Shown in pieces: positions 33,001 to 60,892 of a DNA stretch of 64,000 bases. The DNA lies in the sequence record MH791411.1, one strand, 5' to 3'. A program made the position numbers and the translations under genes. Every line of letters starts with the position of its first letter. The first letter of the stretch is position 1. This stretch comes from Escherichia phage Ecwhy_1. The notes below the pieces were generated by a model. That model was given only the letters and a program-made list of their open reading frames with translations, searched no databases and was not told the origin of the DNA.

Positions 33001-33473
33001 TGCCTAAACCGCCAACATCTGTTGAATTGAAAGACATTTTTAAAGAAGTTGAACAAAAAATAGTCATCAGTGACAGTATTATTTGGCATAGTGCAGAATA
33101 TCTACCATTATTTGGTGCGAGTGCTGCTGAAGATTATAAAGCAGATTTTAAAGTCGTCAAATTGCCTAACAGTACAATGAGTGATGATGAAATTCGTCAA
33201 AATGTCGTAGCACTAACTAACGAGTATTTTAATGTTGACAACTGGGATTTTGGTGAAAGTTTCTATTACACAGACTTGTGTACATACATTCATTCCCAAT
33301 TAGGACGACATATTAGTACTATTGTTATCGTAGCTCAAAACCCTAACTCTAAATTTGGCTCACTATTTGAAATCCCTTCACGTTCTGACCAGATTTTCTT
33401 AAGTACTGCATCAGTTGATAACGTACAGATAGTCAATTCCTTGGCTAAGAGTAACATTAACATTGGTTCATAA
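30012..33473 (+). CDS. 6: baseplate wedge protein, baseplate-J (gp6-like) family, 1153 aa
   Basis: N-terminal region DYLRATYPDSFNDWIENDQFIFILDTISMLGQNLAFRMDLNTRENFLDTATRRASVLKLAKMISYSPRR is typical of baseplate J / gp6; follows gp25-like as in P2 W-J. Confidence 0.6.
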   Translation: MSQQKRQSNLYAGEDWTQVYESFYKINLTAYDFDTIRQSMIDYLRATYPDSFNDWIENDQFIFILDTISMLGQNLAFRMDLNTRENFLDTATRRASVLKLAKMISYSPRRSYPGRAVAKLTEIKTNQDVRNSFNESLKDKIIRWNDPMDTNWYENFILVMNSSFVSTNQFGNPVKRIDINGVSRQLYRMNTIPMSAPSLPFTATVNGESMTFEVVNPDITAVGVEERHPEPQEQKYIVYQNDGNGFSSPNTGFFVYFVQGTLTYQDYQYNIREENRIQDINVDNINETDVWVQEINEDGIVRTKWTKVPSMESIAYNTVNRQLKTIFAVTTRDKDQITIKYPDSRSGVVPRGTYRVWYRVSNGETYNIKTSEIQNKSVKYTYRTKTQSSYESSTLDIRFTLQYESDRAQSAETIEQIKARAPQMYYTQNRFVNGEDYNIAPLSLGNTVLKSKAINRLYSGQSRFIDINDPTGKYQNTDVFSDDGSMYQENTQFNKSLQLPTTKTNASIVIDNIQPLIGENAVIQRYQAYPPNTIGIEIQQKWTPEYNSNYATNTYGRIMGATGNVFGNYQVGTLIKFSNAGTTVWASIVSVLDNGYYVLSTSVSSNMQAQEYILQYRTRFNSVEVQAIAAMLDKKTDFVIIHDKETTSWIPLEISTDEDTISYNGNEVLVMINIKYTAETWEFDANGVEYVFVGGDKVRFYFVSSKKITDISTGSVQSDKIEILSSNTTSNSNAGLTSNIDFQIYDTIQQENGYLDGSRVVITSENVDSNGIPLEPNQFREIVPNWTGEDSVKYGGILVFQENDDFTISVLSLPNDTFTILDSSWAYTMDQALAETNAYKRSEFVRNNAIRSTTLSGIYSKGSGFIVGFNYDGKYYFIEQTVGNNNDRLNQLIENLTYSDDTTAATPELAFYRAIVNIGTNADVNQKLDYYGYKDVTSQYTVKTNARTGIDFHWKHYAPDDNRIDPSRTNLIDMYVLTNSYKTEVDVWLKNGTQGNMPKPPTSVELKDIFKEVEQKIVISDSIIWHSAEYLPLFGASAAEDYKADFKVVKLPNSTMSDDEIRQNVVALTNEYFNVDNWDFGESFYYTDLCTYIHSQLGRHISTIVIVAQNPNSKFGSLFEIPSRSDQIFLSTASVDNVQIVNSLAKSNINIGS

Positions 33474-33507: not shown

Positions 33508-33553
33508 ATCATAAATAAATCAAATGAATGAACGAATTATATGGAGTCCAAAA

Positions 33554-39500: not shown

Positions 39501-42500
39501 TTCGTGATACAATCTATGTACCACCATTGCATTCCAGAACTAAATCTTGTACTGATATTGCTCGTATTATTAAAGAACCAGCACAGCTTAACATTCCTTG
39601 GTTTGCACCAATCAATGAAAGCTCGTTCATTCTAAGTAATATGCAATTTGAAGTCAACGATGACACAAGTATTTTAACTGTTTCTTATTACATGGATAAT
39701 ACTGAAGTTATTAAACATGACCAGTATCAATTATGTAAAGAAGGTGATAGCTATAACTTCAATCCATCAATCTGGACTTCTATGTGGAATTCTATGATTG
39801 GTCAAGAAACTACTGAATCAGGAACTGTTATTGATTTACTATATCCTTTAGTACCAAACGGTTTAGGTTCTAATAAGACTTGGTTCCAAGATGTAATTGA
39901 AGCTCGTAGAAACTTTGTAGAAAGTGCAAATAACTATTATCGCTCACAGAATATAACAACTAACACTGTTCTAATGGACGAAGTGTTTAATGTTAAAACT
40001 ACTGAAGTTAACCCGAATGAAGTATCATATCGTGTACTAACTTACAATAGTGAATTAGTCATTGCACCTGAAAGTGACAAGTTCAAAGAAAACGACGCAG
40101 TACTAGTAAGTACTAGTGGTGTATTACCTAACCCACTATCAACTAGCTCTGTATATTTTGTGCATATTGATGCTAATGGTTATATTCATCTAATGAATAG
40201 TCCATCAAGTGCTGGTAGTGTGGTTACCATTACATTGGAAAACCGTGGTGAAGGTCAACAGAAAATGATTAAACAATCAGACTATGTTGAAGCACTAGGA
40301 ACTTCATTGGACATGACCCAGTACTGGTCACTAGCAGATTGGTATGATATTGGCTACGATAAAAATACTGCATATACACAAGAATCCAGCCTAGAAGATG
40401 CAAACACTAAGAACTATCAAGTTGGTGACATTATCAGAATTACAGATGTTGATGGCATCTGGACATTGTACATTAAAGCACAATCACGTGATTCAGTTTA
40501 CTGGAAAGCAATTGGTCGTGAAAATAGTACAGTTGAATTGAATGATATGTTATACGCTGACTATACAGTTCGTGATGCTAATGGTTCGTTGAGTAATCGT
40601 GAGATTAACGTTCGTAAAGCACTAGCTTTATTGAAGAACTCATTCGACTTACATCAGAGTGAAATTGTGTTTGATATGGTTAAGTATGTTCACGTAGAAC
40701 AAAGCGTTGTTGATTGGGTATTCAAAACATCTTACATTTATATTGTAGGTTTAGAACAATCATTAGTACAGAACTATTCCAACGACAACTTGATTAATCA
40801 AATCGTTGAGTACTTTGAAGAAGTTAAACCATATAGAACTAAGATTCGTTCCCAGATTGAACAGAAAACTTCAGATGATGATTTAATTAAAGGTTTGTGT
40901 AATGATTTAGATCCTAATGGCTATATATTTGCAGATGGGACTTGGGTTAAAACGGAAAAAGACATTTGGGATTATGAATATGCTCAATTCAATGAGGTAA
41001 CTCAACGTTGGGAGCAAGTTGGTGAATTGCCAAGTGATTTCGTAACACCTAATCGCCGTTTCCAAGAAATTGATGTTATCATGCACTACGACAACACTCA
41101 ATGTAAACCAAATGATAATTTGGCAAGTGTTGATGTATTGGAAGAAGTGAATAAGAAATATCAATCTAATGCACAAGATGTTGTTAGTAATTTTGAATTA
41201 CAACGTTACAAATATACATTCCCAGAATACAGTGATGAAGATTTCGACCTATTGGTTGCTTATCAGATGCAATTGTATTACCCAGAATTGAACGTAACTC
41301 TAGGGATTGCTTACGGTGTTAACCAATGGTATGCAGACCATGCAGATGATTTGGTAGCAACCGCAGAATTCACAGAAACGTTGAATCGTGTATATAAAGA
41401 ATCAACACAAAATGAAATGTTTAATGACGTAAATCATTATGTTCAGTATAACACACTCTCTAACCGTTTGAAATTGTACACAGGTGCAGATGATGAAGTA
41501 ATTCATGATGAGGTTGGATGTGGATTTAGTGGGTTAACCTATGATGATAATCCAAGCACCAGACTACCGTTTGGTTATGCATCCAGTACTGATTATAACT
41601 TTGGTTACTTTGAAGTTAGTAGTGAGTTGTATAAAAAGTATGTTTCTTTAATTAAAGAAAACAATACTACTGCAACTGATGATGAAGTTAGAATTATACT
41701 TGAAGTTGAATATGGTGTTTATTCATATCGCCATGTAGATGAAGATGGAAATCAACGATTCTACAATGACGCAATTCATGTATTGTCTGGTATGCGTGGT
41801 TTGTATGACAAAGATGCTACCGACCATTATGAAAAGGCTGAAGAAATACTAAGTAGAATGCCTATTGATATTCATGCATTTACTATGATGCCACGAAAAT
41901 ATGTTTATGTTAATGTTAATGGTGTATACGAGAGTATCCCAGATGACCAAAGCATTGATGATTTCATGGAAGACAAATTCATAACTGACGGTCAACTAGT
42001 TCAATTGGCAGAAATAAATCTTGATGACTTACCTCTTGATAGAAATAACCCAATGTACAGTGATTATCAGCACATCCTAGATAGCATCACCGATGCTAAG
42101 TACTACGATGATATGAATGCATTTGATAACCTAGCACTTGAATCACAAACTTCCGAGTTAAAATGGGAAGTTGAAGGTGACGAAGTAGATCCGTACATAA
42201 TCGACATTTCTGATATTAACCCATCAGGAAGAAAGATTGGTCAGATTCGCTTCACAGTTGATGGTTATGGATTCAATAGTGTTTCACTAGTTCAATTGAG
42301 AGACAATAGTAGATATAAAACTGAAGGTATGGTTATCATCAACCCTTATAAAACAACAGAAGCAATTGTTAGTATTCCTTCTTACGCTAAGATTGAAAAT
42401 GATATTAGTAAATCATACAGTAAGTATGATGAAAAATACTTCTATAAAATTAAATCAATTGTTAGTGATACAGAAGCTGAAGTAATTGACAATACCCTAT

Positions 42501-43525
42501 CTGATGGTGATAAGGTTATGATATTCACAACTGATGGTGAAGATTATGTGAGATACCAAAACAATGCATGGGAAACCATCTTGAGTGTATCAAAAATCAA
42601 AACTGACACCACACCAACCTTGTACACAGTAAGAAACACTGCGAACGGAACTGTAGAACTACTAGATAGTACTGGAGTTGTACTTCGTTATGATAACATC
42701 ACTAAACAACAACAGAATGAACCAGCAATACCTCTAGCATTGAACATCGTTCGTATTAGAACCTTTGCTGATCCAGAATTCTTGGTTGATGGTGTTAAGT
42801 TGTATGAAACAAATAGAAACTATGCTATCGACGCAATGAACTATGAAGTATTCTACGACACAACACTATACGGTGGTTCTTATAATGATGGAATTACACC
42901 AGATGACGTTGATGTTTGGGTAGTGTCTAACGAGATATTTGAAGTTGATGGTGTTACCATTGATAACGGATATAACTTACCAATTACTGGTGCAGGTGTT
43001 CTTAGTGAGTTAGTGAGAACCAAAATGACTGATAGTGTGGAAATTAACGTGTTCGAGTATGATGTTGGTATTATTCAACCAGTACTGAATACTGAAGGGG
43101 TATGGGAATATGCATATCCACTAGTTAGTGATACATATATTGGTGTAGTTGGTGGAACCGTAACTAACATTACTGCTATCAGTGAAGAAAATACTACTTA
43201 TGTTTCACAACCAGATTCAGTTAGTCCATATAGTGTTACTAATAATGTTCTATCTGGTGCTGGTGCAAGTATGAATGATATTATTTCTCTTGGTTTTGAA
43301 AAAGTTGAAGTACGTTTTGCAAATAACTTACTCCGTGGGGTAATGTATAGTGCAGAACACGACTTTAAAGAGAATGTGACATATTCATTTAATGGCTTGA
43401 ACTTAGGTAAAGTTAATTTACTAAAACGTTATAGTGTTAACAGTTATCCAATCGAACTATCTGTTTACTCCGATAGTTTGCAAATAAGTGGTACTGACAT
43501 TAAAAATCTATTAGAAGTTAAATAA
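33554..43525 (+). CDS. giant virion protein (~3323 aa), probable baseplate wedge (gp7/gpI-position) or fiber-network protein
   Basis: Uninterrupted 10-kb ORF; start taken at the second ATG with GGAG SD; CATAAATA late-type motif upstream; non-repetitive composition; position after gp6-like. Confidence 0.55.
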   Translation: MTNNFKFQPTQMAEAVQKKLFIKRLPEWMQGLEDIQKVSDDVIQQWFNPAENELVDGYIGDMGSPAAAGNIFLHESTVARQLYQLSTAYVSRNDDSSIRSIQFYDDLVGYMNHYGALTENESRLFNGKFYSWTPPINPNKMNNYSSYLWDSKNSYNITTPDYIVMERGAENGNTWSLQNFWYTLGETLEDGTILTEELMQDSRFVRARAPIIEYNKNIELMNYGTKFRGTVDLFSDIIKPEDIVQKDINSGIRIDGIIPQDGMRILFTSIGNNGENNRIYKVYVKRMQDGTRVYGLALDPDEESESRPSGEPQDGDVVLIIKGNEFGNSSMYWDGSHWIQAQSKTSVNVFPQFQLYDRNGVKLNNTTTYPSSTFTGSSLFGFKINYNYATDSVYGYNIELGDYNYYTYENFLQSTRYTYEHLGVEVEIDGLYYYNVIGEGNTMNLETDWVRSTEYSKQYVKQTPQVERTVMFRVFSTVYDMESFKDPVEGMYAYVIEVDRTYQYYKAERETYLDWHVIVGDGVQSVKYNHTFELAQKVLDNSDDIIELVVDGVEIKEYTKTVVNNQVQSITIDSSVDLDEDSVVQIRTYSSTITPNKELGAYEVPINLQNNPYNSNIEYINQGDYTLHFQDIIQKNITSGSADDFNNYEERLAAGLVNNGVGTKIIQNEASMLPLMAHTANEDIDLFESIMFMQAEYFRFINKFNTQMLRLYEEDPSAFLGNSASNIVDAILTAINMGRDSTFPFYYDNVASTAGFIRAFVPPTPQFLGILQAYTPQKATFLTAGSKSSCYNISHTGIISKAYRVINGVDKMDDVVFELENRIFNSIDLTFKDIDYKPVLNSEDLFPTPYFTGTDYSAEEKKTLLLRGYINFTATNGISNSTHDYDANNWRTWNYTGSYYVVDGQRTEIPARGSWRAIYTDQYGTYRPATHPWEMMGFSQRPTWWNQEYEPTAVQVGEREGDVVYVYEALVMNENGDLVPSGLWDIDGTIGDSSTGTILSGERRGQYDKYKRFGVQPFKITKTGEKTSTGIDICEVEYIAPEVLGLVSGNLDHRAEPWSYGDMGDMEFTYMNTAMFAYDQMLLLYKAKPAQFANYYWDTRNDNLKPVYTDGSQFLYGETRKRLNFDSTTLVHGEKNTRTIGYQMFVSDYLMYQNKNITTKYGDVVRSSYVNVAHKIGGFTKADQLTFTAKSFGLISQENQTIGLVRSNNIRDEQMSAVKITWNGSAYQIDGYDLVGAKFKYKIPVKNGRKVTLKLEDRTVVHYNEWKSEGTLEYGKIFNTYQEVYTFICGYGEYLKEHGWIFEDVNDSGTQQDWTTIAKDFVIWSQNNLSTGEFISCTPSAANAKFGADFGSVQSVTQNSGGVWSLLDDENQGIRQYEIETSRIGNVFTVRTTSESQKRMALIRLSLSSYEHAVVFDDKTIFGDYIYQPTYGAIQELIKMYGYITGSWTGRLQAPGFIILEAGTLPSFEKLVTDFELYYNSETPVSDVQLQELSNHLIGYQTRDYLQRMISSDVSRVDFYKGFIHDKGTNQVMEKVLRVSKSYDTDEYKALQEWAFKIGTYGNINGKKNLQFKLINDQFKQQPQMVSFDVNATSNGTGNGIVYYGEQGVDSRWITRPNGKFSFPMRSGRSENIQLPDIGPVTLDEISYVTKDFSTAYNDRINYMNNSGEIPDSVWMFKDGNDLWNIFELVDTEVEMLSIVPIENTDVYAEQFCKVTLSDDIPLNDGDYYYFVDETNFMPDTLTIESQYYTAGNDPRVMVVPFDTSITIDFTDPDTRPRLYRYVSRFSTEEMRQEYIDRKYSFKAPQSTLFDRPTTYDERTNITALYLNVFDPINGVIPGAAMQNVTYTSPVDPAQYNSNGELIQAWGADKVGQVWWNTSTAFYLDYTRAIYDADGNVDVDATNEYKRYNWGRLLPHSTVDVLEWVCSPVEPYNWDKYCKDVANKNKNNTMYLPSGTALEDNYSTFLEYDSTTDTYVTKYYFWVRDTIYVPPLHSRTKSCTDIARIIKEPAQLNIPWFAPINESSFILSNMQFEVNDDTSILTVSYYMDNTEVIKHDQYQLCKEGDSYNFNPSIWTSMWNSMIGQETTESGTVIDLLYPLVPNGLGSNKTWFQDVIEARRNFVESANNYYRSQNITTNTVLMDEVFNVKTTEVNPNEVSYRVLTYNSELVIAPESDKFKENDAVLVSTSGVLPNPLSTSSVYFVHIDANGYIHLMNSPSSAGSVVTITLENRGEGQQKMIKQSDYVEALGTSLDMTQYWSLADWYDIGYDKNTAYTQESSLEDANTKNYQVGDIIRITDVDGIWTLYIKAQSRDSVYWKAIGRENSTVELNDMLYADYTVRDANGSLSNREINVRKALALLKNSFDLHQSEIVFDMVKYVHVEQSVVDWVFKTSYIYIVGLEQSLVQNYSNDNLINQIVEYFEEVKPYRTKIRSQIEQKTSDDDLIKGLCNDLDPNGYIFADGTWVKTEKDIWDYEYAQFNEVTQRWEQVGELPSDFVTPNRRFQEIDVIMHYDNTQCKPNDNLASVDVLEEVNKKYQSNAQDVVSNFELQRYKYTFPEYSDEDFDLLVAYQMQLYYPELNVTLGIAYGVNQWYADHADDLVATAEFTETLNRVYKESTQNEMFNDVNHYVQYNTLSNRLKLYTGADDEVIHDEVGCGFSGLTYDDNPSTRLPFGYASSTDYNFGYFEVSSELYKKYVSLIKENNTTATDDEVRIILEVEYGVYSYRHVDEDGNQRFYNDAIHVLSGMRGLYDKDATDHYEKAEEILSRMPIDIHAFTMMPRKYVYVNVNGVYESIPDDQSIDDFMEDKFITDGQLVQLAEINLDDLPLDRNNPMYSDYQHILDSITDAKYYDDMNAFDNLALESQTSELKWEVEGDEVDPYIIDISDINPSGRKIGQIRFTVDGYGFNSVSLVQLRDNSRYKTEGMVIINPYKTTEAIVSIPSYAKIENDISKSYSKYDEKYFYKIKSIVSDTEAEVIDNTLSDGDKVMIFTTDGEDYVRYQNNAWETILSVSKIKTDTTPTLYTVRNTANGTVELLDSTGVVLRYDNITKQQQNEPAIPLALNIVRIRTFADPEFLVDGVKLYETNRNYAIDAMNYEVFYDTTLYGGSYNDGITPDDVDVWVVSNEIFEVDGVTIDNGYNLPITGAGVLSELVRTKMTDSVEINVFEYDVGIIQPVLNTEGVWEYAYPLVSDTYIGVVGGTVTNITAISEENTTYVSQPDSVSPYSVTNNVLSGAGASMNDIISLGFEKVEVRFANNLLRGVMYSAEHDFKENVTYSFNGLNLGKVNLLKRYSVNSYPIELSVYSDSLQISGTDIKNLLEVK

Positions 43526-45955: not shown

Positions 45956-47452
45956 ATGGCATATAGAATGTGGAAAAAAGGTAGAACCAATGATTACAAG
46001 TTCATTGACTCTGCCATAGCAGAACAATACAACATCGGTGGTGTTGACATGTGGCTTTATGCCTATGTCGGACCAAAACAAGTCGCTGATAACACTGATT
46101 TATCATACGGCGGTGATTATTATGGATCAGATAGTACCGTTGTGTCAAGCATTGGTGATTTAATTTTTGGTGACACTCCAAGTCGTAACTATAATCTCGA
46201 AGCTATCACCTTAAGTTGCGTCTACCAAGTCCAAGAAGCAACTCCTGACTTGAAAATCCCAGGATTGTTCTTCAACTTTAACACTATGGACATCACAATT
46301 CATTATAACACAATGATTCAGCGTTTGGGAAGAAAAATTATGCCAGGTGACGTAATCGAACTTCCTAACTTACGTGATTTTGATGTACTTGGTAAAGATT
46401 CTGGTTTAAACCGCTTCTATGTAGTACAAGATGGGTTTAGAACGTCAGAAGGTTACTCAGTTACATGGCAACATCACATTTACAAACTCCGTGTTAAACC
46501 TCTTACTGATTCACCAGAGTACTCTGACCTTCTAGGTAACAATAACTACCCTGATGACCCAGATGATCCAAACAACGGCAATGGTAATACTGATGATGGC
46601 TCTTCAGAGAACAGCAGCTATGGTAATGAAATGGATATTATGAACCGTATCATTATGCAAGCTGATGATGAAGTACCATACATTCATTTTACTAACGAAC
46701 ACTTGTTCGATGACAGACCAGATACTGTTGATTTGTCTAAGTATATGCTAAATGGATACGAATTACCAGAGGAACCAGCAAATAAAATGTATTTCCTCAA
46801 GAAAACTTACCCAGTACTGAAAGAACTATCTAATGATACATGGATTTCTGTAGAAGTCAAGCGTGGAACAATCTTTCCTCGCAAACCGATGGATGGTGAC
46901 TTCTTCTTTAAAGAAAACGAGGCTGATGTCACTGGCTTCTCATTGTATCAATACGATAAATCTGCCAAAAAGTGGCTAAATTGTGATGTTGAGTATACTA
47001 CAGAAAGCACACCACCACAAGGGGTTGATGATTTTTATATTGAATACAAAGAACCACACATTTATCAGTACTTAAATGGTAAATGGGGAGAACCAGAAGT
47101 AACTTACGTTAATGACCCATTCACTTCTAATAGTGTTTATGGAAATATCGATTCACAACAAGATTATCGTCCTAAGATTCCTCCAGCACGAGGTACAGTT
47201 CCTGAAGGTAATATGTTCCCAAGTGATGCAGTTGATGGTGATTACTACTATCGTACCGATTATACACCAGTAACCCTATGGGAATACAGTGCGTCCAAGA
47301 ATTCTTGGGTGATTTTCGATTACGGTGGTAGAAAACCGTGGGAAGGTGCAGATCTTGCTCTAACAGAATTTGTTAATAGCCCGAACCGTGTACCATTACA
47401 TGATGCAGTTAAACCTAATACAGCGTATCGTATACATAAGGATTCAGAATGA
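45956..47452 (+). CDS. virion structural protein, possibly neck (gp13/gp14-like), 499 aa
   Basis: GGAGA SD; internal duplicated motif DGDFFF...YQYD..AKKW / DGDYYY...WEYS.SKNSW; immediately upstream of the gp15-like gene. Assignment is positional. Confidence 0.35.
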   Translation: MAYRMWKKGRTNDYKFIDSAIAEQYNIGGVDMWLYAYVGPKQVADNTDLSYGGDYYGSDSTVVSSIGDLIFGDTPSRNYNLEAITLSCVYQVQEATPDLKIPGLFFNFNTMDITIHYNTMIQRLGRKIMPGDVIELPNLRDFDVLGKDSGLNRFYVVQDGFRTSEGYSVTWQHHIYKLRVKPLTDSPEYSDLLGNNNYPDDPDDPNNGNGNTDDGSSENSSYGNEMDIMNRIIMQADDEVPYIHFTNEHLFDDRPDTVDLSKYMLNGYELPEEPANKMYFLKKTYPVLKELSNDTWISVEVKRGTIFPRKPMDGDFFFKENEADVTGFSLYQYDKSAKKWLNCDVEYTTESTPPQGVDDFYIEYKEPHIYQYLNGKWGEPEVTYVNDPFTSNSVYGNIDSQQDYRPKIPPARGTVPEGNMFPSDAVDGDYYYRTDYTPVTLWEYSASKNSWVIFDYGGRKPWEGADLALTEFVNSPNRVPLHDAVKPNTAYRIHKDSE

Positions 47453-48792
47453 AAATAGATTATTATTATGATGGTCAATTTCGTCGAGTACTGAAACATC
47501 TTATCAGAGTGTTTGGTGAATTTCAAGTACAAAATGGTGTTGATGCTGACGGAAAACCAAAATATAAGAAAGTTCCTTGCCGCTATGCAGATATTTCACG
47601 TATGGCAGCAGCAATTATTAATGGTAACAGTGAGAACGTGCTTCCAACAGCACCAATCATGACCATTAGTGTAAACCAACTTAAACTAGATCGCAAGTCA
47701 GTTCGTTCAAACGCAAATGAAACATTAGTTATGGGGACTAACAAGTCCCCTGGAATTAACGAATATACTAAAGACTTAGATAAACAGTATAAAGTAACTC
47801 GTCATAACCCAGTACCTTGGACATTTACGTTTGATGTTAATATTTGGGTTACACAAACACAAACTAAAATGGAACTATTTGAGCAAATTTCAACATTGTT
47901 TGCTCCTAGTATTCAATTACAACTCTCCGAGAACCCACTGGATTGGACATCATTGAGTGATGTGGAGTTGATTGACTGTCAATTTACTACTCGTGGTTTC
48001 CCACAAGGAACCGATAGTGATTTGGATATAATGGTATTGACATTTGAAACCACAATTTGGTTCTCTTTGCCAGCTATTGTTGAGAAACCAAAACTTATCC
48101 AACAAATCACCACCAATATTAAAGGTGCTCGTGATGAACTTGATTTTGAAATTGGTAATTACTCGGATATCATTACTGATGTATTCACACCAAAGAACTT
48201 ATGTATTAAAGTTGATGAAATAACAAACTCTGAACTTAATATTCCAGATACTTACCAACTCACTCTTGTTAGTCAATCACTATCAGAAACATCACCAAAT
48301 GGTGGGATTTATTCATGGGAAAAATACCTTAAGTACTTGGACCCAGAATATGAAGACAAGACTGTAGGTATTAAATTCCAACAAGCTATAGAAGAGGATA
48401 ACCCACTAAAAGGACATATCTCTTCATTTGGGGAAGGGGCTGATTCTAACAAGATTGTAGTTCAGCTTGATAATAGTAATTATACTGTTGATTATACAAT
48501 ACATGGATTCATTAGTAAAGACTCTTTGTTATATAACGCACTACCTGAACAATATTATGTAAATAATAGCATACATAACATCATTTACAAAGAGACTGAA
48601 ATCCCAGCGAACTATTTGTTTAAAATTACCAATGATGGAGCAGAACTTATTGAGCCATCGCGAGTACACAACTATGTTTATAATATGGAAGATAGTGGAT
48701 ATTATAGATATAATGACAAATTCAAATGGCATAAGAGTATTATGTCAGTATATCGTCAGGGATATTGGAAAATAACTTTCACTGACAAATAA
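47449..48792 (+). CDS. 15: tail sheath stabiliser / completion protein (gp15-like), 447 aa
   Basis: MKIDYYYDGQFRRVLKHLIRVFGEFQ...KYKKVPCRYAD resembles the T4 gp15 N-terminus (MFGYFYNSSFRRYATLMGDLF...KFIRVPITYAS) as recalled; start overlaps the upstream stop. Confidence 0.55.
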   Translation: MKIDYYYDGQFRRVLKHLIRVFGEFQVQNGVDADGKPKYKKVPCRYADISRMAAAIINGNSENVLPTAPIMTISVNQLKLDRKSVRSNANETLVMGTNKSPGINEYTKDLDKQYKVTRHNPVPWTFTFDVNIWVTQTQTKMELFEQISTLFAPSIQLQLSENPLDWTSLSDVELIDCQFTTRGFPQGTDSDLDIMVLTFETTIWFSLPAIVEKPKLIQQITTNIKGARDELDFEIGNYSDIITDVFTPKNLCIKVDEITNSELNIPDTYQLTLVSQSLSETSPNGGIYSWEKYLKYLDPEYEDKTVGIKFQQAIEEDNPLKGHISSFGEGADSNKIVVQLDNSNYTVDYTIHGFISKDSLLYNALPEQYYVNNSIHNIIYKETEIPANYLFKITNDGAELIEPSRVHNYVYNMEDSGYYRYNDKFKWHKSIMSVYRQGYWKITFTDK

Positions 48793-51532: not shown

Positions 51533-51641
51533 TGTTAAGCCCTTTTAGTAGTGAACTTTCATTTATTTATTAATGGCAACGAAATGTATTTTGTACTGAT
51601 AAATATTGGTATATGACATTAACTCATACAAGGGAAATATT

Positions 51642-52769
51642 ATGACAATTTCATTCAACAATGGGTCAGGTGGTTCATGTAATAATTCTGGCATCAAAAG
51701 TTTAGTTATTAACGCTGCTGGACATTTAATTGTAACCTATTCCGACAATACAATCCAAGACCTAGGTCTAGTGGTTGGACAAAATGGTGCTAACGGTAGA
51801 AACTTTTATCCAAATGAGATAGGTTTTGAAGTTCCTAATGAACTCTTCCGTGTTGGTGAAGAACTAGGGTGGTGTTATCTTAGTCTTGCAAATGGCACTA
51901 GTACTTTATATTTCAAATCAAACGATGCACAAGAAGCAATTAGTACTTGGAACCGTGTAGAGTTTGGTAAAGGCGATACTGGTGAAACTGGTAAACCATT
52001 CCACATTGACAGTTCTGGTACGGTGTTTCCAACAACTGGTCTTTTCAATAATTACACATTCTATAATACTGAAGATGGTAAATTATATTTCTATCAAAGC
52101 GTAACTGCAACATGGAGTGATGGTATTCCTTTCCGTGGTGAACAAGGTCTACGTGGTCGTTTCCATATTGATAGTACTGGTAGTCAATTCCCAAGCATTG
52201 ATAATCTACCACAAGATTATTGCTTCTATAACACGACAGATGGTAATTTGTATTATGTCGATATCGTAACTACATCATCAACCCCAACTAAAGAGTGGAG
52301 TGCTGGTATCTTATTCCGTGGAAAAGACGGTGAAGAAGGTAAGCAAGGTGAACAAGGTATTCAGGGTGAACCAGGTAAAGATACAGTTGTTATCATCAAC
52401 ACTATTGATCATTCATGGACTAACGCATTGTTAGTTATTGGTACATGCCCTGCTGGATACCTAGTAACTAATATCGAAGTTGATATTAACCAAGCATATG
52501 ATGAACCAGTAAATGAAATGTTTGTACGTTTCGGTGGTGAAGCACAAGAAGATATTGGTGGTACTGTAATTGCACCTGTTGATTATTTCGATATCAACCG
52601 CAAAATGCGTTACATTGTTAACGAAACCAACCACGAAGTATCAAGTAAAGATGAAATCATTTCTTGTGTATTCAATGATTCCGTAAACAACAGTTCATTT
52701 GGTGAAATGAAGATCGTTTGTACTTTATCATGGCAAGCACCTATTCAGCCTATTCAAGATAACATTTAA
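51642..52769 (+). CDS. fiber-like protein with short collagen-like tract (~375 aa)
   Basis: G-x-y repeat GKDGEEGKQGEQGIQGEPGKD; start taken at MTISFNN with AAGGGAAA SD; GATAAATA late-type motif upstream. Confidence 0.5.
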   Translation: MTISFNNGSGGSCNNSGIKSLVINAAGHLIVTYSDNTIQDLGLVVGQNGANGRNFYPNEIGFEVPNELFRVGEELGWCYLSLANGTSTLYFKSNDAQEAISTWNRVEFGKGDTGETGKPFHIDSSGTVFPTTGLFNNYTFYNTEDGKLYFYQSVTATWSDGIPFRGEQGLRGRFHIDSTGSQFPSIDNLPQDYCFYNTTDGNLYYVDIVTTSSTPTKEWSAGILFRGKDGEEGKQGEQGIQGEPGKDTVVIINTIDHSWTNALLVIGTCPAGYLVTNIEVDINQAYDEPVNEMFVRFGGEAQEDIGGTVIAPVDYFDINRKMRYIVNETNHEVSSKDEIISCVFNDSVNNSSFGEMKIVCTLSWQAPIQPIQDNI

Positions 52770-52783
52770 AAGAGGGTTGATAA

Positions 52784-54925
52784 ATGGCAGTTTTTTCCAA
52801 TTTAGAAGGGACCATGATGCCAACATTCAAGTTGGGTAAACGTGGTGCTTCTATTAATTTTGTAAACGATTCTGTCGCAATCAAAGACTTTTTAGGCGAA
52901 ACGTTCCTACCTGTTAAGGTGGGAACTCCTAATGACGATGATTCCGCAGTAAACGTTAGGTATCTTGAAGATAACCCAAATGCTTTATTTGGCGTACTTC
53001 CACCAACAAATGACATTGGTAAAAATAACAACACTTATTTTCAAGTTGATTCTGAGGGTATTGTTGATATCTTTGCAAAAACAAATGATGTTTGGGTAAA
53101 ATCATTATACATTAATAAAAATGTCCTTTCCAGTGTTAACGGTGCTGATTATATCGGACTTATTACTGGAGGAACACTTCAACAGGCACAGTTTTACATA
53201 ACTCCAGAAGAGTTTGGTGCAAAAGGTGATGGCATCACTGATGACACGGCGGCGGTTAACGCATGTGCAGTTTATGCTAAAGAACACAAAATCCAAATTC
53301 AAGCTGGTGGTAATTATCGTATCAGAACTGCTGTTTATTTGAATGATATTCAATGGTTTGGTGGTACAATCACTGGTAACGGTGGCACAATGGTATCGGT
53401 ACTGAATAGTACAATCCAACAAGCAACATTAACAGGATGTTATTTAAAATTCTTTGGTGGTAATGGTAAATTTTATTTTAATAAATTTATTAATATTACA
53501 AGTACTGCTGCATTTCTAATGCAAGGTATGACTGAATCAGGTACTATCGACTTCTGCTTTAATGAAATGACACAATGTAAGTACGGTGTTCTTCAGCAAG
53601 GCACTGGTGAGAAAATGACCGTTGGGCGTTATTCATACAACCACATCCATGATATATATGGTGATGCAATTGAATTGAACGTAGTCAACTCACATTACCC
53701 AGACGGATTTGTAATAGAAGGTAACTTGATTGAAAACGTAGATGGTACAAATGCACCAATTCCTCTTTCAAACTGGGGTATTGGTATCGGTGTTGCAGGT
53801 TCTGGTCCTTATGATGTGAATGCTGATGATTCACAATATGTAAAAAAATTCGTTATAAAAAATAACCGCTTGTACAATGTCCGTCAATGTATTCACGTTG
53901 AGTTGGGTAAAGACTTTAAAATTCTCAATAATGAAGTTTATCCATCAACGTTGGTATCAATTGGTACTGGTTTGACAACCGCTGGTGTAATTACTTATGG
54001 TTCTGTTGATTTTATTATTGATGGCCTATCTGGGCATCTATTAAATGATCCATCAGTAACTAACCGTATGGTTTCTATTAACTGGGGCGTAACATCTGGT
54101 AAATTTGCTGGTCCTCCACGAAACTTTAAATTATGTAATCTCCACATTCCTGAGTCGTCTATTATTGTGTATACTTCAGGCTCTGATAATTGGCTAAATA
54201 CTACTGAACTTTCTAATATTACATGTAGTAGAATTCAATGGCGTGGATTGCCGTCATCTTCCAAGTTTAATAATATCAGTACTAAAGAACTTGATGTTAT
54301 TGGACAACACCTTGCAACTGAAGGTGAAGGAGGGGGCTTATATACTCGCTCTAAATATACATATACCAACTGGACTAATTGTGTTGTTCAAGATGATTGT
54401 AACATATCAAAATATAGTTTCTCAAGAATGTATGTTGACCGTATTGACCAATCATCTAATAACTTTAAAGTAACCACTGCAATTGATGGAACGGGTCATC
54501 GTGGACCTGTAGTAATACCTGTAGTTGAACAGTATTACGTGCCTTATGATGTTTTTCCTGGTGGGAGATATTTCCCAGCAGGAACAATTATCCATAAACA
54601 ATCAGGTGGAAAATTTATTGTTACAGTAGGTGGTTCTTTCTTTGGTCGATATGACACAATTAGACAAACAGTTGCAGGACAAACTTATATCGAAGCATTG
54701 GGTGTATCATGGGGTGATAATCAATATGCTAAAGCTGCTGGAACCGAAATCCTAATCACAGGAGCAGGGGAAAATGGCGAAGATTTAAAAACATATATCA
54801 CTAGAGCAGTTTATGTTGTTAATAATGCGTATCGTATCGATATTGCCGATCCGATTGTTACTGCTACCGCAGCAGGGGCATTATTGAAAGCTGCTCAACC
54901 AATAACATATATCACCCTATCTTAA
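52784..54925 (+). CDS. tailspike with pectate-lyase-like beta-helix (probable polysaccharide depolymerase), 713 aa
   Basis: ITPEEFGAKGDGITDDTAAVNA is the hallmark N-terminus of pectate-lyase-3-type tailspike beta-helices; N-terminal MAVFSNLEGTM adapter shared with the next gene. Confidence 0.6.
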   Translation: MAVFSNLEGTMMPTFKLGKRGASINFVNDSVAIKDFLGETFLPVKVGTPNDDDSAVNVRYLEDNPNALFGVLPPTNDIGKNNNTYFQVDSEGIVDIFAKTNDVWVKSLYINKNVLSSVNGADYIGLITGGTLQQAQFYITPEEFGAKGDGITDDTAAVNACAVYAKEHKIQIQAGGNYRIRTAVYLNDIQWFGGTITGNGGTMVSVLNSTIQQATLTGCYLKFFGGNGKFYFNKFINITSTAAFLMQGMTESGTIDFCFNEMTQCKYGVLQQGTGEKMTVGRYSYNHIHDIYGDAIELNVVNSHYPDGFVIEGNLIENVDGTNAPIPLSNWGIGIGVAGSGPYDVNADDSQYVKKFVIKNNRLYNVRQCIHVELGKDFKILNNEVYPSTLVSIGTGLTTAGVITYGSVDFIIDGLSGHLLNDPSVTNRMVSINWGVTSGKFAGPPRNFKLCNLHIPESSIIVYTSGSDNWLNTTELSNITCSRIQWRGLPSSSKFNNISTKELDVIGQHLATEGEGGGLYTRSKYTYTNWTNCVVQDDCNISKYSFSRMYVDRIDQSSNNFKVTTAIDGTGHRGPVVIPVVEQYYVPYDVFPGGRYFPAGTIIHKQSGGKFIVTVGGSFFGRYDTIRQTVAGQTYIEALGVSWGDNQYAKAAGTEILITGAGENGEDLKTYITRAVYVVNNAYRIDIADPIVTATAAGALLKAAQPITYITLS

Positions 54926-54939
54926 AGGAGATTATAAAA

Positions 54940-55839
54940 ATGGCAGTTTTTTCTAATTTAGAAGGAACCATGAAGAAGACCTTCATACTTGGTAAAAATG
55001 GTGCACAAATTGCCACTAATGGTAATGTTGTTCAAATCCAGAACTACACGGGTACACAACTTCTTCCTGTTTCAGCAGGTGACCCAACCGCAAATACACA
55101 CTTGGTTACATTGGGTTATTTGAATACACATAGCGGTGGTGGTGGTGGTTCCGGTATTTTACGTGGAACTATTGCACCATCTGAATCAATCGGTGTAGAT
55201 GGTGACGCTTACTTCTTAGTTGACAGTACTAATATTATTCAGATCTATATTAAAGACCTTGGTGTTTGGAAGCCTCTCCAAAGCACAACTCCAGGTACTG
55301 ATAGTTCTTACGTTACTACTGAAATCGTTCCTGTATCGGCATTTACATTAGTTCCTGGAACAACAGATCAATATACTTATTCTTTGCCTGAATCAGTACA
55401 TGGTCGTGGTCCAGATATTATGGTTCAGCTACAGGGTGATCCTGGTAACATCCCACTTGACACTGTATTCCAAACTAACGTCACTGTGAGTGGTATTGGT
55501 GACATTACGATTGATGTTATTGGTCAAATCACTGAATACACAAGTGTCAAAGTCAACATCATAGGAGCAACAACAATGACAGTACCTTATAGTAAATTAA
55601 TTAATATAGCAGATTGGGTAGCATCTGGTGATGATTACACCATTACTGTTCCAGCGTCAGAACATAACCAAACACCTGACAATTTGTATATTTCTATATA
55701 TTCAAATAAAACACCAGGCAGTACAGCAGCATCACCATTTGAACTGGTAATAACCGAAACTCAAATTGATGCAAGTGGTAATGTTACATTCACTTCTGAC
55801 GAAGCGTTTAGTGGTAAAATAGTAATTTCCGGTAAATAA
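54940..55839 (+). CDS. second receptor-binding protein sharing the N-terminal adapter, 299 aa
   Basis: First ~35 nt nearly identical to 52784 (MAVFSNLEGTM...LGK.GA); distinct C-terminal domain; poly-Gly linker GGGGGSG. Confidence 0.5.
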   Translation: MAVFSNLEGTMKKTFILGKNGAQIATNGNVVQIQNYTGTQLLPVSAGDPTANTHLVTLGYLNTHSGGGGGSGILRGTIAPSESIGVDGDAYFLVDSTNIIQIYIKDLGVWKPLQSTTPGTDSSYVTTEIVPVSAFTLVPGTTDQYTYSLPESVHGRGPDIMVQLQGDPGNIPLDTVFQTNVTVSGIGDITIDVIGQITEYTSVKVNIIGATTMTVPYSKLINIADWVASGDDYTITVPASEHNQTPDNLYISIYSNKTPGSTAASPFELVITETQIDASGNVTFTSDEAFSGKIVISGK

Positions 55840-55845
55840 AAAAAA

Positions 55846-55882
55846 TAGTCCAGACTATGATTCATCTAGTCTGGATTTTTTA
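55846..55882 (+). terminator. rho-independent terminator
   Basis: TAGTCCAGACTA / TAGTCTGGA stem followed by TTTTTT. Confidence 0.7.
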
Positions 55883-55889
55883 TATCAAT

Positions 55890-55915: not shown

Positions 55916-55957
55916 TCAAATGTATTTTATGCTTTTTGCCTATTTGGAGGGAACTAA

Positions 55958-58900
55958 ATGTACTCGATTAAAACAGATCTCGATATAACTGGTGGTGCAA
56001 CGGTTGCTAAAGATCTTCTTGTGAAAGGCGATGCAGTATTCAATAAAAATCTAACAGTTAATGGAACTGTAACTTTTGCTGACGCTGTATTCACTGCAAT
56101 TGAAGCAGAAACTGTAGACATTTCATCTACACTAGATGTTGCTGGTAAAGCATCATTGAATGGTGGAATTGAAGTTCATGGTAATTCCGTAATTGGTAAT
56201 TTGCCTGTTGGTTCTGATACTGCAACGATTAATTCTAATGCACAATTCCAAAGCCCAGTATCAATGGCAGGTAATCTAACACAAACCGCTGGCACTGCTG
56301 TACTAAAAGATACCCAAGTGGCATCAATGGATGTTCTTGGGACTTCTTCATTTAAAGGTAATATTACTGCTGAAACTGGCACTACCGCAGCATTTGACAA
56401 AATAACTGCAACTGATGCAACATTCACAAACACTGCAACTACTGATATCACATCAACTGGAACTGCAAACTTTAAAGATGTGAATATTTCCGGTACACTA
56501 GGTGGAACATTTAGTCTATCTGATGTTAATGCAACAACTCTAACTGTTTCTGGTTTAACCAGTCTACAAGGTGGTGTTACATTAGGTTCCAACATTACTG
56601 GTGTGAATAGTAGTGCAAACTTCCGTGATATTAAAATTGGTTCCAATGCTGCAAACACTAACTACCGTTTGAGCTTTAACTATTCTGCTCCAAGTCTTCG
56701 TCCAACTGTAATTCTACAGAACGAAATCCAATCAGAATTGATGTCTCCAGCTACCCTAAGTGTATTGAAAACTGCATCTTTTGGTGATTCGTCACTATCC
56801 ACTTTTGGTATTACTGGTAATGGTCTAAACAAACTAGATTACCTAACAGTATCTGGTAACTCTGTTCAAGATCCAACAACTCCACTATTACAAGTAACTT
56901 CAGGTAAAACTAAAGTTCATGATTTCGAAGTAACAGGAACTGCAACTATTCCTAACATTGAAAGTACTGGTACTGCTAATTTTAATAACATCAACGTATC
57001 TGGTACACTCGGTGGTACTTTCAGTCTTGATGATATTGAAGCAAACACACTAACTGTATCCGGTTTAACTAGCCTTGTTGGTGGTGTAACTTTAGGTGCT
57101 GATATTTCCGGTGCTAATAGTACTGCTAATTTTAAAGCAGTAAGTTTAGGACAAAACGCCGCCGATGCTAACGTTAAGTATGGTTTTGCTTATTCTGCCC
57201 CTGGTGCTCGCCCAACTGTAATTCTACAAAATGAAATTCAGTCTGAGCTAGTATCTCCAGCAGTACTTAATGTACAAAAAACTGCAACCTTTGGTGATGC
57301 ATCTCTTGCAACCTATGGTATCACAGGTAACGGTCTAAACAAACTAGATTATCTATCTATTACTGGTAATGGTACACAAAGTCCAGCTACCCCACAACTA
57401 CAAGTTGCTGGTAAATCAGTACTAAATGATGTTGAATTCACTGGTACTGTAACTGGTCTAACTGTTGATGTGAGTGGACAAGATCTAACTCCTAAATCAG
57501 TAGATGCTGCTGAAGCAATCAAAGGTCAAACCCTTGAATCAGTTGGTCAAACCACAGTAGGAACTAACCTACAAGTTGGTGGAACTGCTAATGTTGTTGG
57601 TGCACTAACTGGTACTGCTGCTACCTTCACTGGTGATGTAAGTGCTGCTAAAGGTACTTTCAGTGGTGATGTTAGCGTTACTGGTCAAACTGTAACTGTA
57701 CGTGATTTAGTAGTAACTGGTACAACTACTGGTGTAACTGCCCAAGCTGATGTTGATGGTCTTGATATCGCCCCAAATAAAGTTGATGTTACAACAACAC
57801 TATCTGTTGCTGGGGACACTACTTTAGCTGGCCTAACTGCTAGTTCAGTAACCAGTACTGGTGATGTTACTGGTGCGTCTGTATCTGGTAATACAGTAAC
57901 TGCGGCTGGGGCACTATCTGGTGGTTCTCTTGCAGTAACTGGTGCTGGTTCTATGGCTTCACTAACTGTTCCAAGTATTACTGGTGACACTACTTTTGCT
58001 AATAACGTAACTATTACTGGAACACTAACTCCGAGTAGTATAGATTTAAGCACTACTGATGTAAGTGCTGCTTCTTTAACAACTACTGGTAACGTAACTG
58101 TTGGTGGTTCTCTTGCAGTAACTGGTGCTATTGATTTGTCTGCTGCTGATGTAGTAACAAAATCAGTTAGTGCAACTAACCCAAGTACATTTGGTGTAAT
58201 TAATGCATCTTCTGTTGCCGCAACTGGTGACGTTTCAGGTGGCACACTAACTACTACTGGTGCAGCGAAAGTAGGAACACTAACTAGTACTGGTGTAGTA
58301 TCTGGTTCGCGTTTGTCTTCTGGTACTGCAACAATCACAACTTCTGTAACAGTTCCAACTTTACAAGCTGAAGCTGCTGGTGCTGGTACACTAAATCTAG
58401 CAAGTAATGTTGTCGCGGCAAAAGATCTAACTGTCACTGGTGTATTCAAACCTGAAGGTGGTCTTGATCTAACAACTGTTGATATTACTGCAAACTCACT
58501 AACTACTACTGCTGATGTTAATGTTGGTGGAAACTTAGTAGTTGATGGTACTTTTGACCTAAGTGCTGCTGATGTGTCTGTGAAATCTCTTGCAAGTGCA
58601 GAGACAATTACAAGTGCTGGTGTTATTACCGTTACCGATTCAACCAATACTAGTTCGTTACCTAAAATTACTTCAACTGATGCAACACTCTTTACAGTAA
58701 ATGCAGGTACTATTAATGCAACTGGTAACAGTGTACTACAAAGTGTATCAGCTACTCAAGTAACTGCTAATAGTGCTGAATTTTCTGGTGGTGGCCTTGG
58801 TCTTCAAGTTGATAATGATGCAAACGTTGGTGGTGCATTATCTGTTGGTGGCATTGCAACTGTTGGTTCTTTAACAACAACTGCTGCTTCTCTTAATATT

Positions 58901-60892
58901 GCAAAAAATACTGCAATCACTGGTGATTTAGCTGTATCTGGCACACTAACTGCTGGTTCAATCGACCTAAGCAATACTGATGTAACCGTTAAATCTCTTG
59001 ATTCACTAGGTAACGCACACATTGCTGGTAACCTAACTGTAGATGGTGCATTCGACTTAAGTGCAACTAACCTTGTAGCTGCAAGTCTAGCAAGTACTGG
59101 TTCTACTACTGTTGGAACTGATCTAGTACTAACAACTGGTGTTGTGACTGGTAGCCCAGCTATCTCTGGTAATACAACAATCGGTGGAACTCTTGGTGTA
59201 ACTGGTGCTGTTAACCTAACTGATATTGTTAATATCGGTAAGAAAGTAACAGTGAGTACTGGTGGTATTCAGGTAGTTGATGGTGGTATCAATACTAACA
59301 CAATTAACGTTTCTGGTGCTTCTACTCTAGCAGGAACTTCCATTACTGGAACTTTAGGTGTAACTGGTGCTTCTACTCTAGCAGGTGTATCTGCGACATC
59401 ACTAACAGTTTCTGGTGACAGTACTGTTCAGAAACTAACTGTCCAAGGTGAATTGATCCCACAAGGTGGTCTTGACCTAAGCGGTGCAGACATTACTGCT
59501 AATAGTCTAACTACTGCGACAACTATCAATGCAACTGGCCTAAGTACTCTAAGTGGTGGTGTTAGTACTTCTACTGTGACTGCATCTGGTCTAGCAACTG
59601 TTGGAAGTTTAACTTCTACTGCAAACGCATCAGTTGGTGGTAATTTGGGTGTAACTGGAACTCTAGGTGTTACTGGTGCAACTACTGTATCTTCACTAAC
59701 AGCTACTGGTGCAGTGAAAACTGGTACAACCCTAACTGTTGGTACTCCAGTTGGTGAACAACCTGAAACTGTACAGATCATTCCAGATACTTATATTGCT
59801 GGTAAATTGCGTGTAATCGGTGGTATTAACGCTGAAATCGACGTAAGTGGTCAAACACTAGAACCATATGCAATTGAAGCTGCTGCAACACTATCTGCTG
59901 TTGGTAACATTACTTCTGGTGCAACCATCGTTTCTAAAGCTGCAACAATTGGTGATGTTGGTTCACAAAACAACAACCTAACTGTTAATGGTAACGTAGT
60001 AACTAATGGTGACTTCACCGTTACTGGTGTACTAAATGCACAATTGAACCAAGCAGATTCCGATGTAGCTGTTAAGTCTTTGACTGCAACTAATAACGTT
60101 GCGGCTGGTACTTCAATCACTGCTGGAACATCCATCACTGCATCAGGCTTACTAAAAGGTAATTCGTTAGAAGTCACCACTACTGGTTCATTTGGTGGTG
60201 CAGTAACTATGTCAAGTGGTGCAAACATCACTGGTACTGTTGGTATCACTGCTGGTGACCTAACAGTAGGTGGTAATATCTCTGCAACTGGTACTGCTGG
60301 ATTCGGTGCAACAACCGTTTCTACCATTACAACATCAGGTTTAGCTACCCTTGCAAGTGCATCTGTAACTGGTGCTCTAACTGTAGGTGGTACATTAACT
60401 GCAAATGGTAACACTGTGATTGGTGATGCTGCTGCTGATACTTTAACTGTAAATGCAACATCTACATTTAAAGAGAACGCAACATTTGATAAGAACCTAA
60501 CAGTGACTGGTTCTATTAACACCACCACTGCAAACTTCACTACAAACAACATGGTAACTAAGAAATATTCTGTTATCCCTGCTAGTGTTACTGCTTCTAC
60601 TGCTGCTGTAGGTGGCACTTGGACACCAGATGGTACTACTAACGTATATCGCTTAACTCTTGACCAAAGTGTTACAATGGATTCCATCGCGGGTCTAATT
60701 GGTAGTGGTCAAGCATGTTCAGTGTATATCTATGTAACTCCATCTGTTGCTGATACTACTTTCACCTTCGGTGGTGCATACTCTGTAGTTTCTGGTACAG
60801 TAAGTGCTGTAGTTGGTCAAACAAGTATTATCCAAGTAATCTATGATGGTTTCAGTACTGTGTTTGATACCTTCGTTGCACAACGTGTATAA
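55958..60892 (+). CDS. long tail fiber protein, 1644 aa
   Basis: Thr/Gly/Ala/Val/Ser-rich with many internal repeats (ISGTLGGTFSL..., TGNGLNKLDYL..., VDVSGQDLTPKS... each occurring twice or more); GGAGGG SD. Confidence 0.65.
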   Translation: MYSIKTDLDITGGATVAKDLLVKGDAVFNKNLTVNGTVTFADAVFTAIEAETVDISSTLDVAGKASLNGGIEVHGNSVIGNLPVGSDTATINSNAQFQSPVSMAGNLTQTAGTAVLKDTQVASMDVLGTSSFKGNITAETGTTAAFDKITATDATFTNTATTDITSTGTANFKDVNISGTLGGTFSLSDVNATTLTVSGLTSLQGGVTLGSNITGVNSSANFRDIKIGSNAANTNYRLSFNYSAPSLRPTVILQNEIQSELMSPATLSVLKTASFGDSSLSTFGITGNGLNKLDYLTVSGNSVQDPTTPLLQVTSGKTKVHDFEVTGTATIPNIESTGTANFNNINVSGTLGGTFSLDDIEANTLTVSGLTSLVGGVTLGADISGANSTANFKAVSLGQNAADANVKYGFAYSAPGARPTVILQNEIQSELVSPAVLNVQKTATFGDASLATYGITGNGLNKLDYLSITGNGTQSPATPQLQVAGKSVLNDVEFTGTVTGLTVDVSGQDLTPKSVDAAEAIKGQTLESVGQTTVGTNLQVGGTANVVGALTGTAATFTGDVSAAKGTFSGDVSVTGQTVTVRDLVVTGTTTGVTAQADVDGLDIAPNKVDVTTTLSVAGDTTLAGLTASSVTSTGDVTGASVSGNTVTAAGALSGGSLAVTGAGSMASLTVPSITGDTTFANNVTITGTLTPSSIDLSTTDVSAASLTTTGNVTVGGSLAVTGAIDLSAADVVTKSVSATNPSTFGVINASSVAATGDVSGGTLTTTGAAKVGTLTSTGVVSGSRLSSGTATITTSVTVPTLQAEAAGAGTLNLASNVVAAKDLTVTGVFKPEGGLDLTTVDITANSLTTTADVNVGGNLVVDGTFDLSAADVSVKSLASAETITSAGVITVTDSTNTSSLPKITSTDATLFTVNAGTINATGNSVLQSVSATQVTANSAEFSGGGLGLQVDNDANVGGALSVGGIATVGSLTTTAASLNIAKNTAITGDLAVSGTLTAGSIDLSNTDVTVKSLDSLGNAHIAGNLTVDGAFDLSATNLVAASLASTGSTTVGTDLVLTTGVVTGSPAISGNTTIGGTLGVTGAVNLTDIVNIGKKVTVSTGGIQVVDGGINTNTINVSGASTLAGTSITGTLGVTGASTLAGVSATSLTVSGDSTVQKLTVQGELIPQGGLDLSGADITANSLTTATTINATGLSTLSGGVSTSTVTASGLATVGSLTSTANASVGGNLGVTGTLGVTGATTVSSLTATGAVKTGTTLTVGTPVGEQPETVQIIPDTYIAGKLRVIGGINAEIDVSGQTLEPYAIEAAATLSAVGNITSGATIVSKAATIGDVGSQNNNLTVNGNVVTNGDFTVTGVLNAQLNQADSDVAVKSLTATNNVAAGTSITAGTSITASGLLKGNSLEVTTTGSFGGAVTMSSGANITGTVGITAGDLTVGGNISATGTAGFGATTVSTITTSGLATLASASVTGALTVGGTLTANGNTVIGDAAADTLTVNATSTFKENATFDKNLTVTGSINTTTANFTTNNMVTKKYSVIPASVTASTAAVGGTWTPDGTTNVYRLTLDQSVTMDSIAGLIGSGQACSVYIYVTPSVADTTFTFGGAYSVVSGTVSAVVGQTSIIQVIYDGFSTVFDTFVAQRV

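Follow-up and report, generated by a model that had tools for sequence, protein, structure and literature searches.

Escherichia phage Ecwhy_1 carries, in the 64,000-nucleotide stretch of record MH791411.1 that we analysed (the window), two adjacent open reading frames (ORFs) of 713 and 299 codons on the plus strand, at 52784..54925 and 54940..55839, where a sequence-only reading of the window had placed them. We propose, with a probability of roughly 70%, that the first gene encodes a virion-borne colanidase tailspike, a chimera whose docking N-terminal domain (N-domain) was copied from a protein of the 299-residue type. The domains of both proteins and the elements that border them are the following.

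51606..52769, + strand: 387-residue ORF of an upstream 'tail protein' (phrog_13565 tail protein, E=8e-213), first gene of the probable three-gene unit
52784..52978, + strand: module A of the colanidase N-domain, residues 1-65, a putative docking element with near-invariant first ~21 residues (alignments and profile)
52979..53101, + strand: module B of the colanidase N-domain, residues 66-106, one copy of a ~42-residue fibre repeat (profile)
53102..54925, + strand: colanidase body, with a helical neck (residues ~112-144), a right-handed beta-helix (residues ~149-510) and a C-terminal domain (phmmer, AlphaFold, Foldseek, PHROG)
54940..55275, + strand: N-domain of the 299-residue protein (modules A and B, residues 1-112)
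55276..55839, + strand: distal part of the 299-residue protein, two tandem, mutually homologous immunoglobulin-like (Ig-like) beta-sandwich domains
55847..55881, + strand: terminator-like hairpin (CCAGACUA...UAGUCUGG) followed by U6, directly after the 299-residue gene

The colanidase body and the shared N-domain

The larger part of the 713-residue protein is homologous to the colanidase tailspike gp150 of phage phi92 across its catalytic region. Residues 96-712 align with residues 11-623 of PDB 6E0V (E=4e-233, phmmer), and the protein matches phrog_6117 'colanic acid degradation' (E=3.5e-252); the precomputed Pfam table records PF27800 on P0069, a protein 99% identical to it. The AlphaFold model (pLDDT 86.7) displays a helical neck and a long right-handed parallel beta-helix, for which Foldseek returns 6e0v_A as the best match (E=1.6e-62, TMt 0.93, 57% identity in the alignment), followed by many beta-helix tailspikes and alginate epimerases. 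The sequence-only reading had taken this protein for a probable depolymerase with a beta-helix and had proposed a structure prediction to check it, and both the homology and the model bear this out. Its further label, 'pectate-lyase-type', is apt for the fold only. The motif EEFGAKGDGITDDTAAVNAC is present at residues 142-161, while Pfam PF12708 (pectate lyase) reaches 17 bits against a cut-off of 27, over residues 143-225 only, and phi92 gp150 is reported to be a hydrolase that splits colanic acid at its beta-1,4 Glc-Fuc linkage (Xu et al. 2025, cited in PMC13450770). The resemblance to pectate lyases is therefore one of fold only, and since the characterised homologue hydrolyses its substrate, the enzyme is predicted to be a glycosidase, not a lyase. 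By the same homology its substrate would be colanic acid, cleaved at the Glc-beta1,4-Fuc bond; its putative oligomeric state is that of a trimeric spike. The motifs GDAIELNV, WGIGIG and RQxxHxE, which at least 90% of 47 homologues retain at identities as low as 28%, probably mark the active-site region. Several records call the protein a 'colanic acid biosynthesis protein', a misnomer that stems from its weak match to the host protein WcaM.

The N-terminal similarity between the two proteins reaches well past the eleven residues, MAVFSNLEGTM, with which both were said to begin and do begin at their respective coordinates. An alignment of the kind suggested earlier runs over about 105 residues, matching residues 1-104 of the 713-residue protein to residues 1-110 of the 299-residue protein at 41% identity (E=2e-19, BLASTP), which upholds the claim of an adapter common to both. 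The two AlphaFold models agree over this stretch, each with three short strands, a helix at 58-63 and four strands in the same order. Neither tblastn nor hmmsearch finds a third copy of the domain in the window. A word-indexed protein search with the 115-residue N-domain alone gave just 3 candidates, so that an exhaustive profile search was needed; run against 1.84 billion representative proteins, the N-domain profile (A6) gave 490 matches. These divide the domain in two: module A, covering residues ~1-70, and module B, covering residues ~65-110.

Module A opens with the peptide MAVFSNLEGTMKKxFxLGKNG, ~21 residues that hardly vary in either paralogue or from one genus to the next, and its profile matches sit at protein N-termini only. 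In metagenomes it heads otherwise unrelated spikes, in which the profile matches residues 1 to 66-80: a 780-residue Peptidase_S74 protein, a 705-residue Beta_helix protein, and BNR/sialidase-like proteins of 1200-1370 residues that also carry CBM5/12. Residues 1 to ~66 are homologous to the N-termini of proteins bearing PF27114 'Phage_tail_beta', as the profile matches residues 1-66 of P0141 (E=1.6e-16) and residues 1-69 of P0149 (E=3e-14), both of which have this family in the precomputed Pfam table. That table does not record PF27114 on P0069 or P0001, and a local Pfam scan was uninformative, P0141 itself being without a PF27114 match. The N-terminus of T4 gp34 was compared with the profile by hhalign, and the alignment of profile positions 35-65 with gp34 residues 15-45 was not significant (probability 2%). 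Module B (profile positions 65-110) finds its matches in collagen-like fibre proteins, among them P0118, P0120 and P0121, where they form up to 14 tandem stretches.

The junction between the N-domain and the region of gp150 homology lies at about residue 105-110, and the modular arrangement proposed by the earlier reading is evident on both sides of it. Module A stands before S74, Beta_helix and BNR/sialidase-like bodies, and homologues of the colanidase body stand behind at least four other adapters, namely P22 Head_binding, TSP1/Gp66 Tail_spike_N, tail-collar-fibre and T7-fibre N-termini. The catalytic cassette has thus been fitted to many virion types, each time by way of a lineage-specific adapter.

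What could account for the near-identity of the two genes at their very beginning? The first 34 nucleotides (ATG..ATGA) differ at 2 positions, 32/34 being identical, and the rest of the shared region retains ~50% DNA identity, just as had been noted from the letters for the first ~35 nucleotides. Such a sharp boundary, along with the scarce variation of synonymous sites in the first 11 codons between genera, might speak for a recent gene conversion or for a nucleotide-level signal, such as a translation-initiation or RNA element, instead of constraint on the protein. We regard this as highly improbable. The sequence ATG GCA GTT TTT TCT AAT TTA GAA GGA ACC ATG recurs with hardly a change in the single-copy genes of GAP32, CBB, RaK2, 7t3 and EJP2; the start of the window colanidase gene is equally distant, by 2 differences, from its own 299-residue gene and from gene 572 of phage 121Q; the encoded peptide is invariant at M1, F4, S5, N6, G9 and T10 in 66 orthologues of the 299-residue protein; and the codons are the A/T-rich ones expected at the genome's GC content of 36%. 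With the same codons kept by single-copy orthologues of all genera, and copies within the window no closer to each other than copies between genomes, recent conversion was rejected, and the 33-nucleotide identity is best read as the mark of strong purifying selection, which acts on the N-terminal peptide in a genome rich in A and T.

Origin of the locus in jumbo phages

Over bases 51600-56000 the window shares 99.9% DNA identity with Escherichia phage vB_Ec-M-J, whose record has the label 'colanidase tailspike' at the matching position, and ~79% with 121Q, PBECO4 and phAPEC6; all four are Asteriusvirus-type jumbo coliphages of 350-385 kb. The order of genes differs among relatives. GAP32, CBB, Salmonella phage 7t3 and Escherichia phage EJP2 have the tail protein followed by a ~290-residue protein and a long fibre, with no colanidase, whereas 121Q, A4, JNE01 and the clade of the window have the colanidase between the tail-protein gene and the ~290-residue gene. 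This distribution argues for insertion of the colanidase gene upstream of the 299-type gene in most Asteriusvirus-type coliphages, EJP2 being without it. RaK2 and K64-1 have the ~290-residue gene cut down to a 115-residue ORF that comprises the N-domain only (gp061, L005 9001-9348, and gp067, L004 9001-9348, respectively). It stands at the syntenic position, and the N-domain occurs at this one place in their genomes. In place of the fibre gene downstream there is one for an unrelated protein, while the tail protein on the upstream side has stayed 71% identical, as measured for RaK2 gp062. RaK2 gp060 was considered as a remnant of the long-fibre gene and discarded, no homology being found.

The N-domains of the colanidases constitute a diverged group of their own: among themselves they share 36-78% identity, against 31-42% with any N-domain of the 299 type, that of the same genome included. 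This indicates that the duplication of the domain is old or was followed by rapid divergence. On the most likely reading, the docking domain of the conserved ~290-residue virion protein was duplicated in a forebear of the jumbo coliphages that bear the colanidase, and the copy was fused, at about residue 105-110, to an acquired neck, beta-helix and C-terminal module of the phi92 gp150 type. The N-domain of the 713-residue protein would then be a diverged paralogue of the N-domain of the 299-type structural protein, which is conserved across the whole RaK2-like jumbo phage group. The comparison across genera thereby reveals a probable route of arrival, with an existing docking domain copied and a widely travelled catalytic cassette fused behind it.

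The colanidase gene is not uniform in the sequenced relatives. In the JNE01/Turkey5 lineage (L003 7187-9329) a 1-nucleotide insertion after codon ~118 leaves a 141-residue N-domain ORF and a 588-residue body, and 28 contigs show the split-off 141-residue ORF. The vB_Ec-M-J record (L001 13185-15327) also has a split colanidase gene, and the ORF of the window is intact. In phAPEC6 intact ORFs of 713 and 298 residues (L011 7185-9326 and 9343-10239) are unannotated in GenBank, the numbers gp254 and gp255 being skipped.

A further pair of spikes resides on one 120-kb metagenomic contig, SRR18476386_53, which bears both the 780-residue S74 protein (L014 8001-10343) and the 705-residue Beta_helix protein (L012 8001-10118). 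Both spikes have the precomputed PF27114. The contig comes from a related jumbo phage, as its NrdD is 76% identical to that of 121Q and the neighbouring genes are syntenic. The two spikes flank a conserved cluster of genes for 902-, 199- and 919-residue proteins downstream of NrdD/NrdG, and 121Q has neither of the module A spike genes at its NrdD/NrdG locus. This pair is a second, independent case of two differing spikes with a common module A.

Mounting in the virion and the role of the 299-residue protein

Given that the colanidase carries the same N-domain, it would most likely sit on the same kind of baseplate or fibre-complex site as the 299-residue protein. Its docking partner may be the product of the upstream tail-protein gene, the best candidate in view of gene adjacency: every genus examined has an orthologue of it immediately before the N-domain gene, the pair being kept even in RaK2. 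Orthologues of this tail protein have been found in virions, as CBB_228 (PMC5259590) and as phAPEC6 gp253. The true start of the 387-residue ORF is likely the ATG at 51642 (MTISFNNGS), which gives 375 residues, as labelled in relatives. The protein displays internal repeats of the form FHIDS.G..FP...Y.FYNT.DG.LY and a short collagen-like G-X-Y run; profile A6 finds no module B repeats in it, and we do not claim the visual resemblance as homology. The tail-protein, colanidase and 299-residue genes are separated by 14-nucleotide gaps with Shine-Dalgarno sequences, and the hairpin at 55847-55881, which closes this row of genes, has a folding energy of -15.9 kcal/mol (z=-5.1; not one of 200 shuffled sequences matched this stability). 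The three genes are thus probably one transcription unit. A consensus terminator scan overlooked the hairpin because its loop is 9 nucleotides long, and the sigma-70 and terminator consensus scans told us nothing, since shuffled sequence gave counts at least as high.

E. coli and its relatives produce colanic acid as a general slime under stress, and it shields their cells from phages. A virion-mounted enzyme would clear this slime by cutting the Glc-Fuc bond and so make the receptor reachable, which would go some way to explaining why these jumbo coliphages have a broad host range. The principal alternative, which we consider improbable, is that the colanidase acts as a soluble enzyme set free by lysis, its N-domain being a recombination relic with no docking role. 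Several observations count in its favour and against a place in the virion. The virion proteome of phAPEC6 lists gp253 and gp256 and neither gp254 nor gp255, although this absence is weak evidence since both ORFs are unannotated and were perhaps not searchable. The notes of the 121Q record label 572 and 574 'structural protein' and 573 just 'colanic acid-degrading protein'. The frameshift of the JNE01 lineage, recurrent on 28 contigs, parts the N-domain from the catalytic body and implies that some phages at least can do without the fusion, and the gene of the vB_Ec-M-J record is likewise split. Against the virion-borne reading stands further that Pfam and PHROG scans, with no profile-profile search against gp10, detected no gp10-like branching domain or known docking site in the neighbouring proteins, and both the incorporation of the colanidase into virions and its partner are deductions of ours, the partner from gene adjacency only. 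A mere relic, however, would hardly remain intact in colanidases whose N-domains have diverged to 36-78% identity, with the first ~20 residues nearly unchanged. All other homologues of the catalytic module begin with an N-terminus of a recognised virion-attachment type, and phi92 gp150 itself is called a tailspike in the title of PDB 6E0V. For these reasons we prefer the virion-borne tailspike.

The sequence-only reading regarded both proteins as receptor-binding, and here it goes beyond what the second one supports. The 299-residue protein has 66 cluster-level orthologues, nearly all of 284-309 residues, which match over their full length at 44-99% identity and belong to phages of Escherichia, Salmonella, Cronobacter, Pectobacterium, Erwinia, Serratia, Yersinia, Xanthomonas and Klebsiella aerogenes. 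The N-domain is 51-86% identical among them, and 60% identical to the N-domain-only proteins of RaK2 and K64-1. Across genera the distal part retains ~45% identity and the N-domain ~62%, the first 20 residues being the most conserved block. The AlphaFold model (pLDDT 80.8) places two Ig-like beta-sandwiches behind the N-domain, for which a structure search gave no informative match and no known receptor-binding domain. The two sandwiches are weakly homologous to each other, with the common motif Y.Y.lP.S.H...PD, and thus represent an internal tandem duplication, which probably accounts for the extra tblastn 'place' in every related genome. A second genomic copy of the distal domain, as the '2 places per record' might have implied, was dismissed after finding none in the window or in 121Q at 1-50 kb and 230-280 kb.

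Ig-like domains on phage surfaces are frequently weak carbohydrate binders. One could accordingly picture the two proteins as alternative receptor-binding proteins competing for one site, with the Ig-like domains of the 299-residue protein contacting a host receptor, given the common N-domain, the adjacency of the genes, the presence of the CBB orthologue, CBB_227, in virions by mass spectrometry (PMC5259590), and the carbohydrate binding discussed for such domains in the same paper. We find this unlikely, if somewhat less so than a soluble enzyme. The distal part is homologous, with many invariant residues, in phages of at least eight host genera, a pattern unlike that of host-range determinants, and RaK2 and K64-1 dispense with it altogether; a structural match to a known receptor-binding domain is also missing. 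The full-length conservation across host genera fits a conserved structural component of the virion, a receptor-binding role being unproven, and on present evidence the 299-residue protein should not be labelled receptor-binding.

A wider role for module A can be suggested more tentatively. It is possible, though we would not bet on it, that this module with its ~21-residue peptide is a universal plug for accessory spikes and fibres in RaK2-like jumbo phages and their uncultured relatives. If so, a colanidase, an S74-chaperoned fibre, a beta-helix spike and a sialidase-like propeller would all mount on one conserved socket, possibly located on the collagen-like 'tail protein', and the 115-residue RaK2 protein would be the bare plug. 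Such a plug would offer a single handle for re-targeting jumbo phages. The junction defined at about residue 105-110 and the conserved plug already supply a concrete rule by which specificity modules could be exchanged in jumbo phages.

Neighbouring genes and comparison with known systems

Pfam and PHROG scans identify the genes around the pair as baseplate and tail genes. Those of note in the window are given below.

26309..28972: hub/lysozyme, a neighbouring baseplate or tail gene
30012..33473: wedge subunit, a neighbouring baseplate or tail gene
33524..43525: giant protein of 3333 residues, between the baseplate wedge gene and a ClpA-like gene
47449..48792: T4 gp15-like protein, a neighbouring baseplate or tail gene
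55958..60892: long-fibre protein of 1644 residues, downstream of the 299-residue gene

The 3333-residue ORF had no match in the Pfam scan and is labelled a virion structural protein in the records of relatives. Several antisense ORFs of 160-320 residues lie on the minus strand at 56176-60687, within the 1644-residue fibre gene, and most likely arise as artefacts of the composition of its repeats, which are rich in T/S/G/A/V.

That phages exchange distal domains behind a conserved N-terminal adapter is a textbook principle, and much of this locus was already known: both genes are present in public genomes with colanidase or structural labels, and the structure of the catalytic module has been solved. 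The orthologues in 121Q (gp573 and gp572), PBECO4 and other Asteriusvirus phages match the pair gene for gene and in their order, at 78-100% identity and without substantive difference, and those of 121Q are already labelled colanic acid-degrading protein and structural protein. What our analysis adds is how far the shared domain reaches, its division into two modules, its probable derivation by duplication beside a conserved gene, and its wider use as a plug for other spikes. A literature search, not an exhaustive one, found no account of an N-domain common to both genes, of its two modules, of the duplication or of such a plug.

The window protein and phi92 gp150 share a homologous neck, beta-helix and C-terminal domain over residues 96-712, with the conserved acidic motifs retained, but their N-terminal attachment regions are unrelated, the window protein having the jumbo-phage modules A and B. 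The closest homologues, ~57% identical, ~800 residues long and apparently gp150-like, have N-termini of the PF26208 type and align from about residue 93. RaK2 and K64-1, multi-depolymerase jumbo phages of the same wider group, retain both the tail-protein gene and the N-domain ORF in the syntenic place and differ in that this ORF, at 115 residues, lacks a distal domain. The phage phiKp24 belongs to a separate family and serves here for the general branching model only (PMC9700779).

The nearest functional parallel is found in the branched receptor-binding protein systems, KP32 gp37-gp38, CBA120 TSP1-4 and G7C gp63.1-gp66, which likewise combine a short, highly conserved N-terminal element with an exchangeable enzymatic body. 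In KP32, deletion of the conserved 29-residue N-terminal peptide of the second receptor-binding protein (RBP2) abolishes virion incorporation (PMC13352976); the counterpart in our pair would be the near-invariant opening of module A. The peptides and anchors of those systems have no sequence relation to the N-domain of the window, however, and the scans of nearby proteins turned up no gp10-like branching domain. The shared unit is here a two-module domain of ~105 residues, and one of its bearers is a conserved structural protein instead of a second depolymerase. The window pair can thus be said to work like a branched receptor-binding protein system rather than to be a member of one, and the locus is a clear but ordinary case of an acquired enzyme joined to an existing attachment module.

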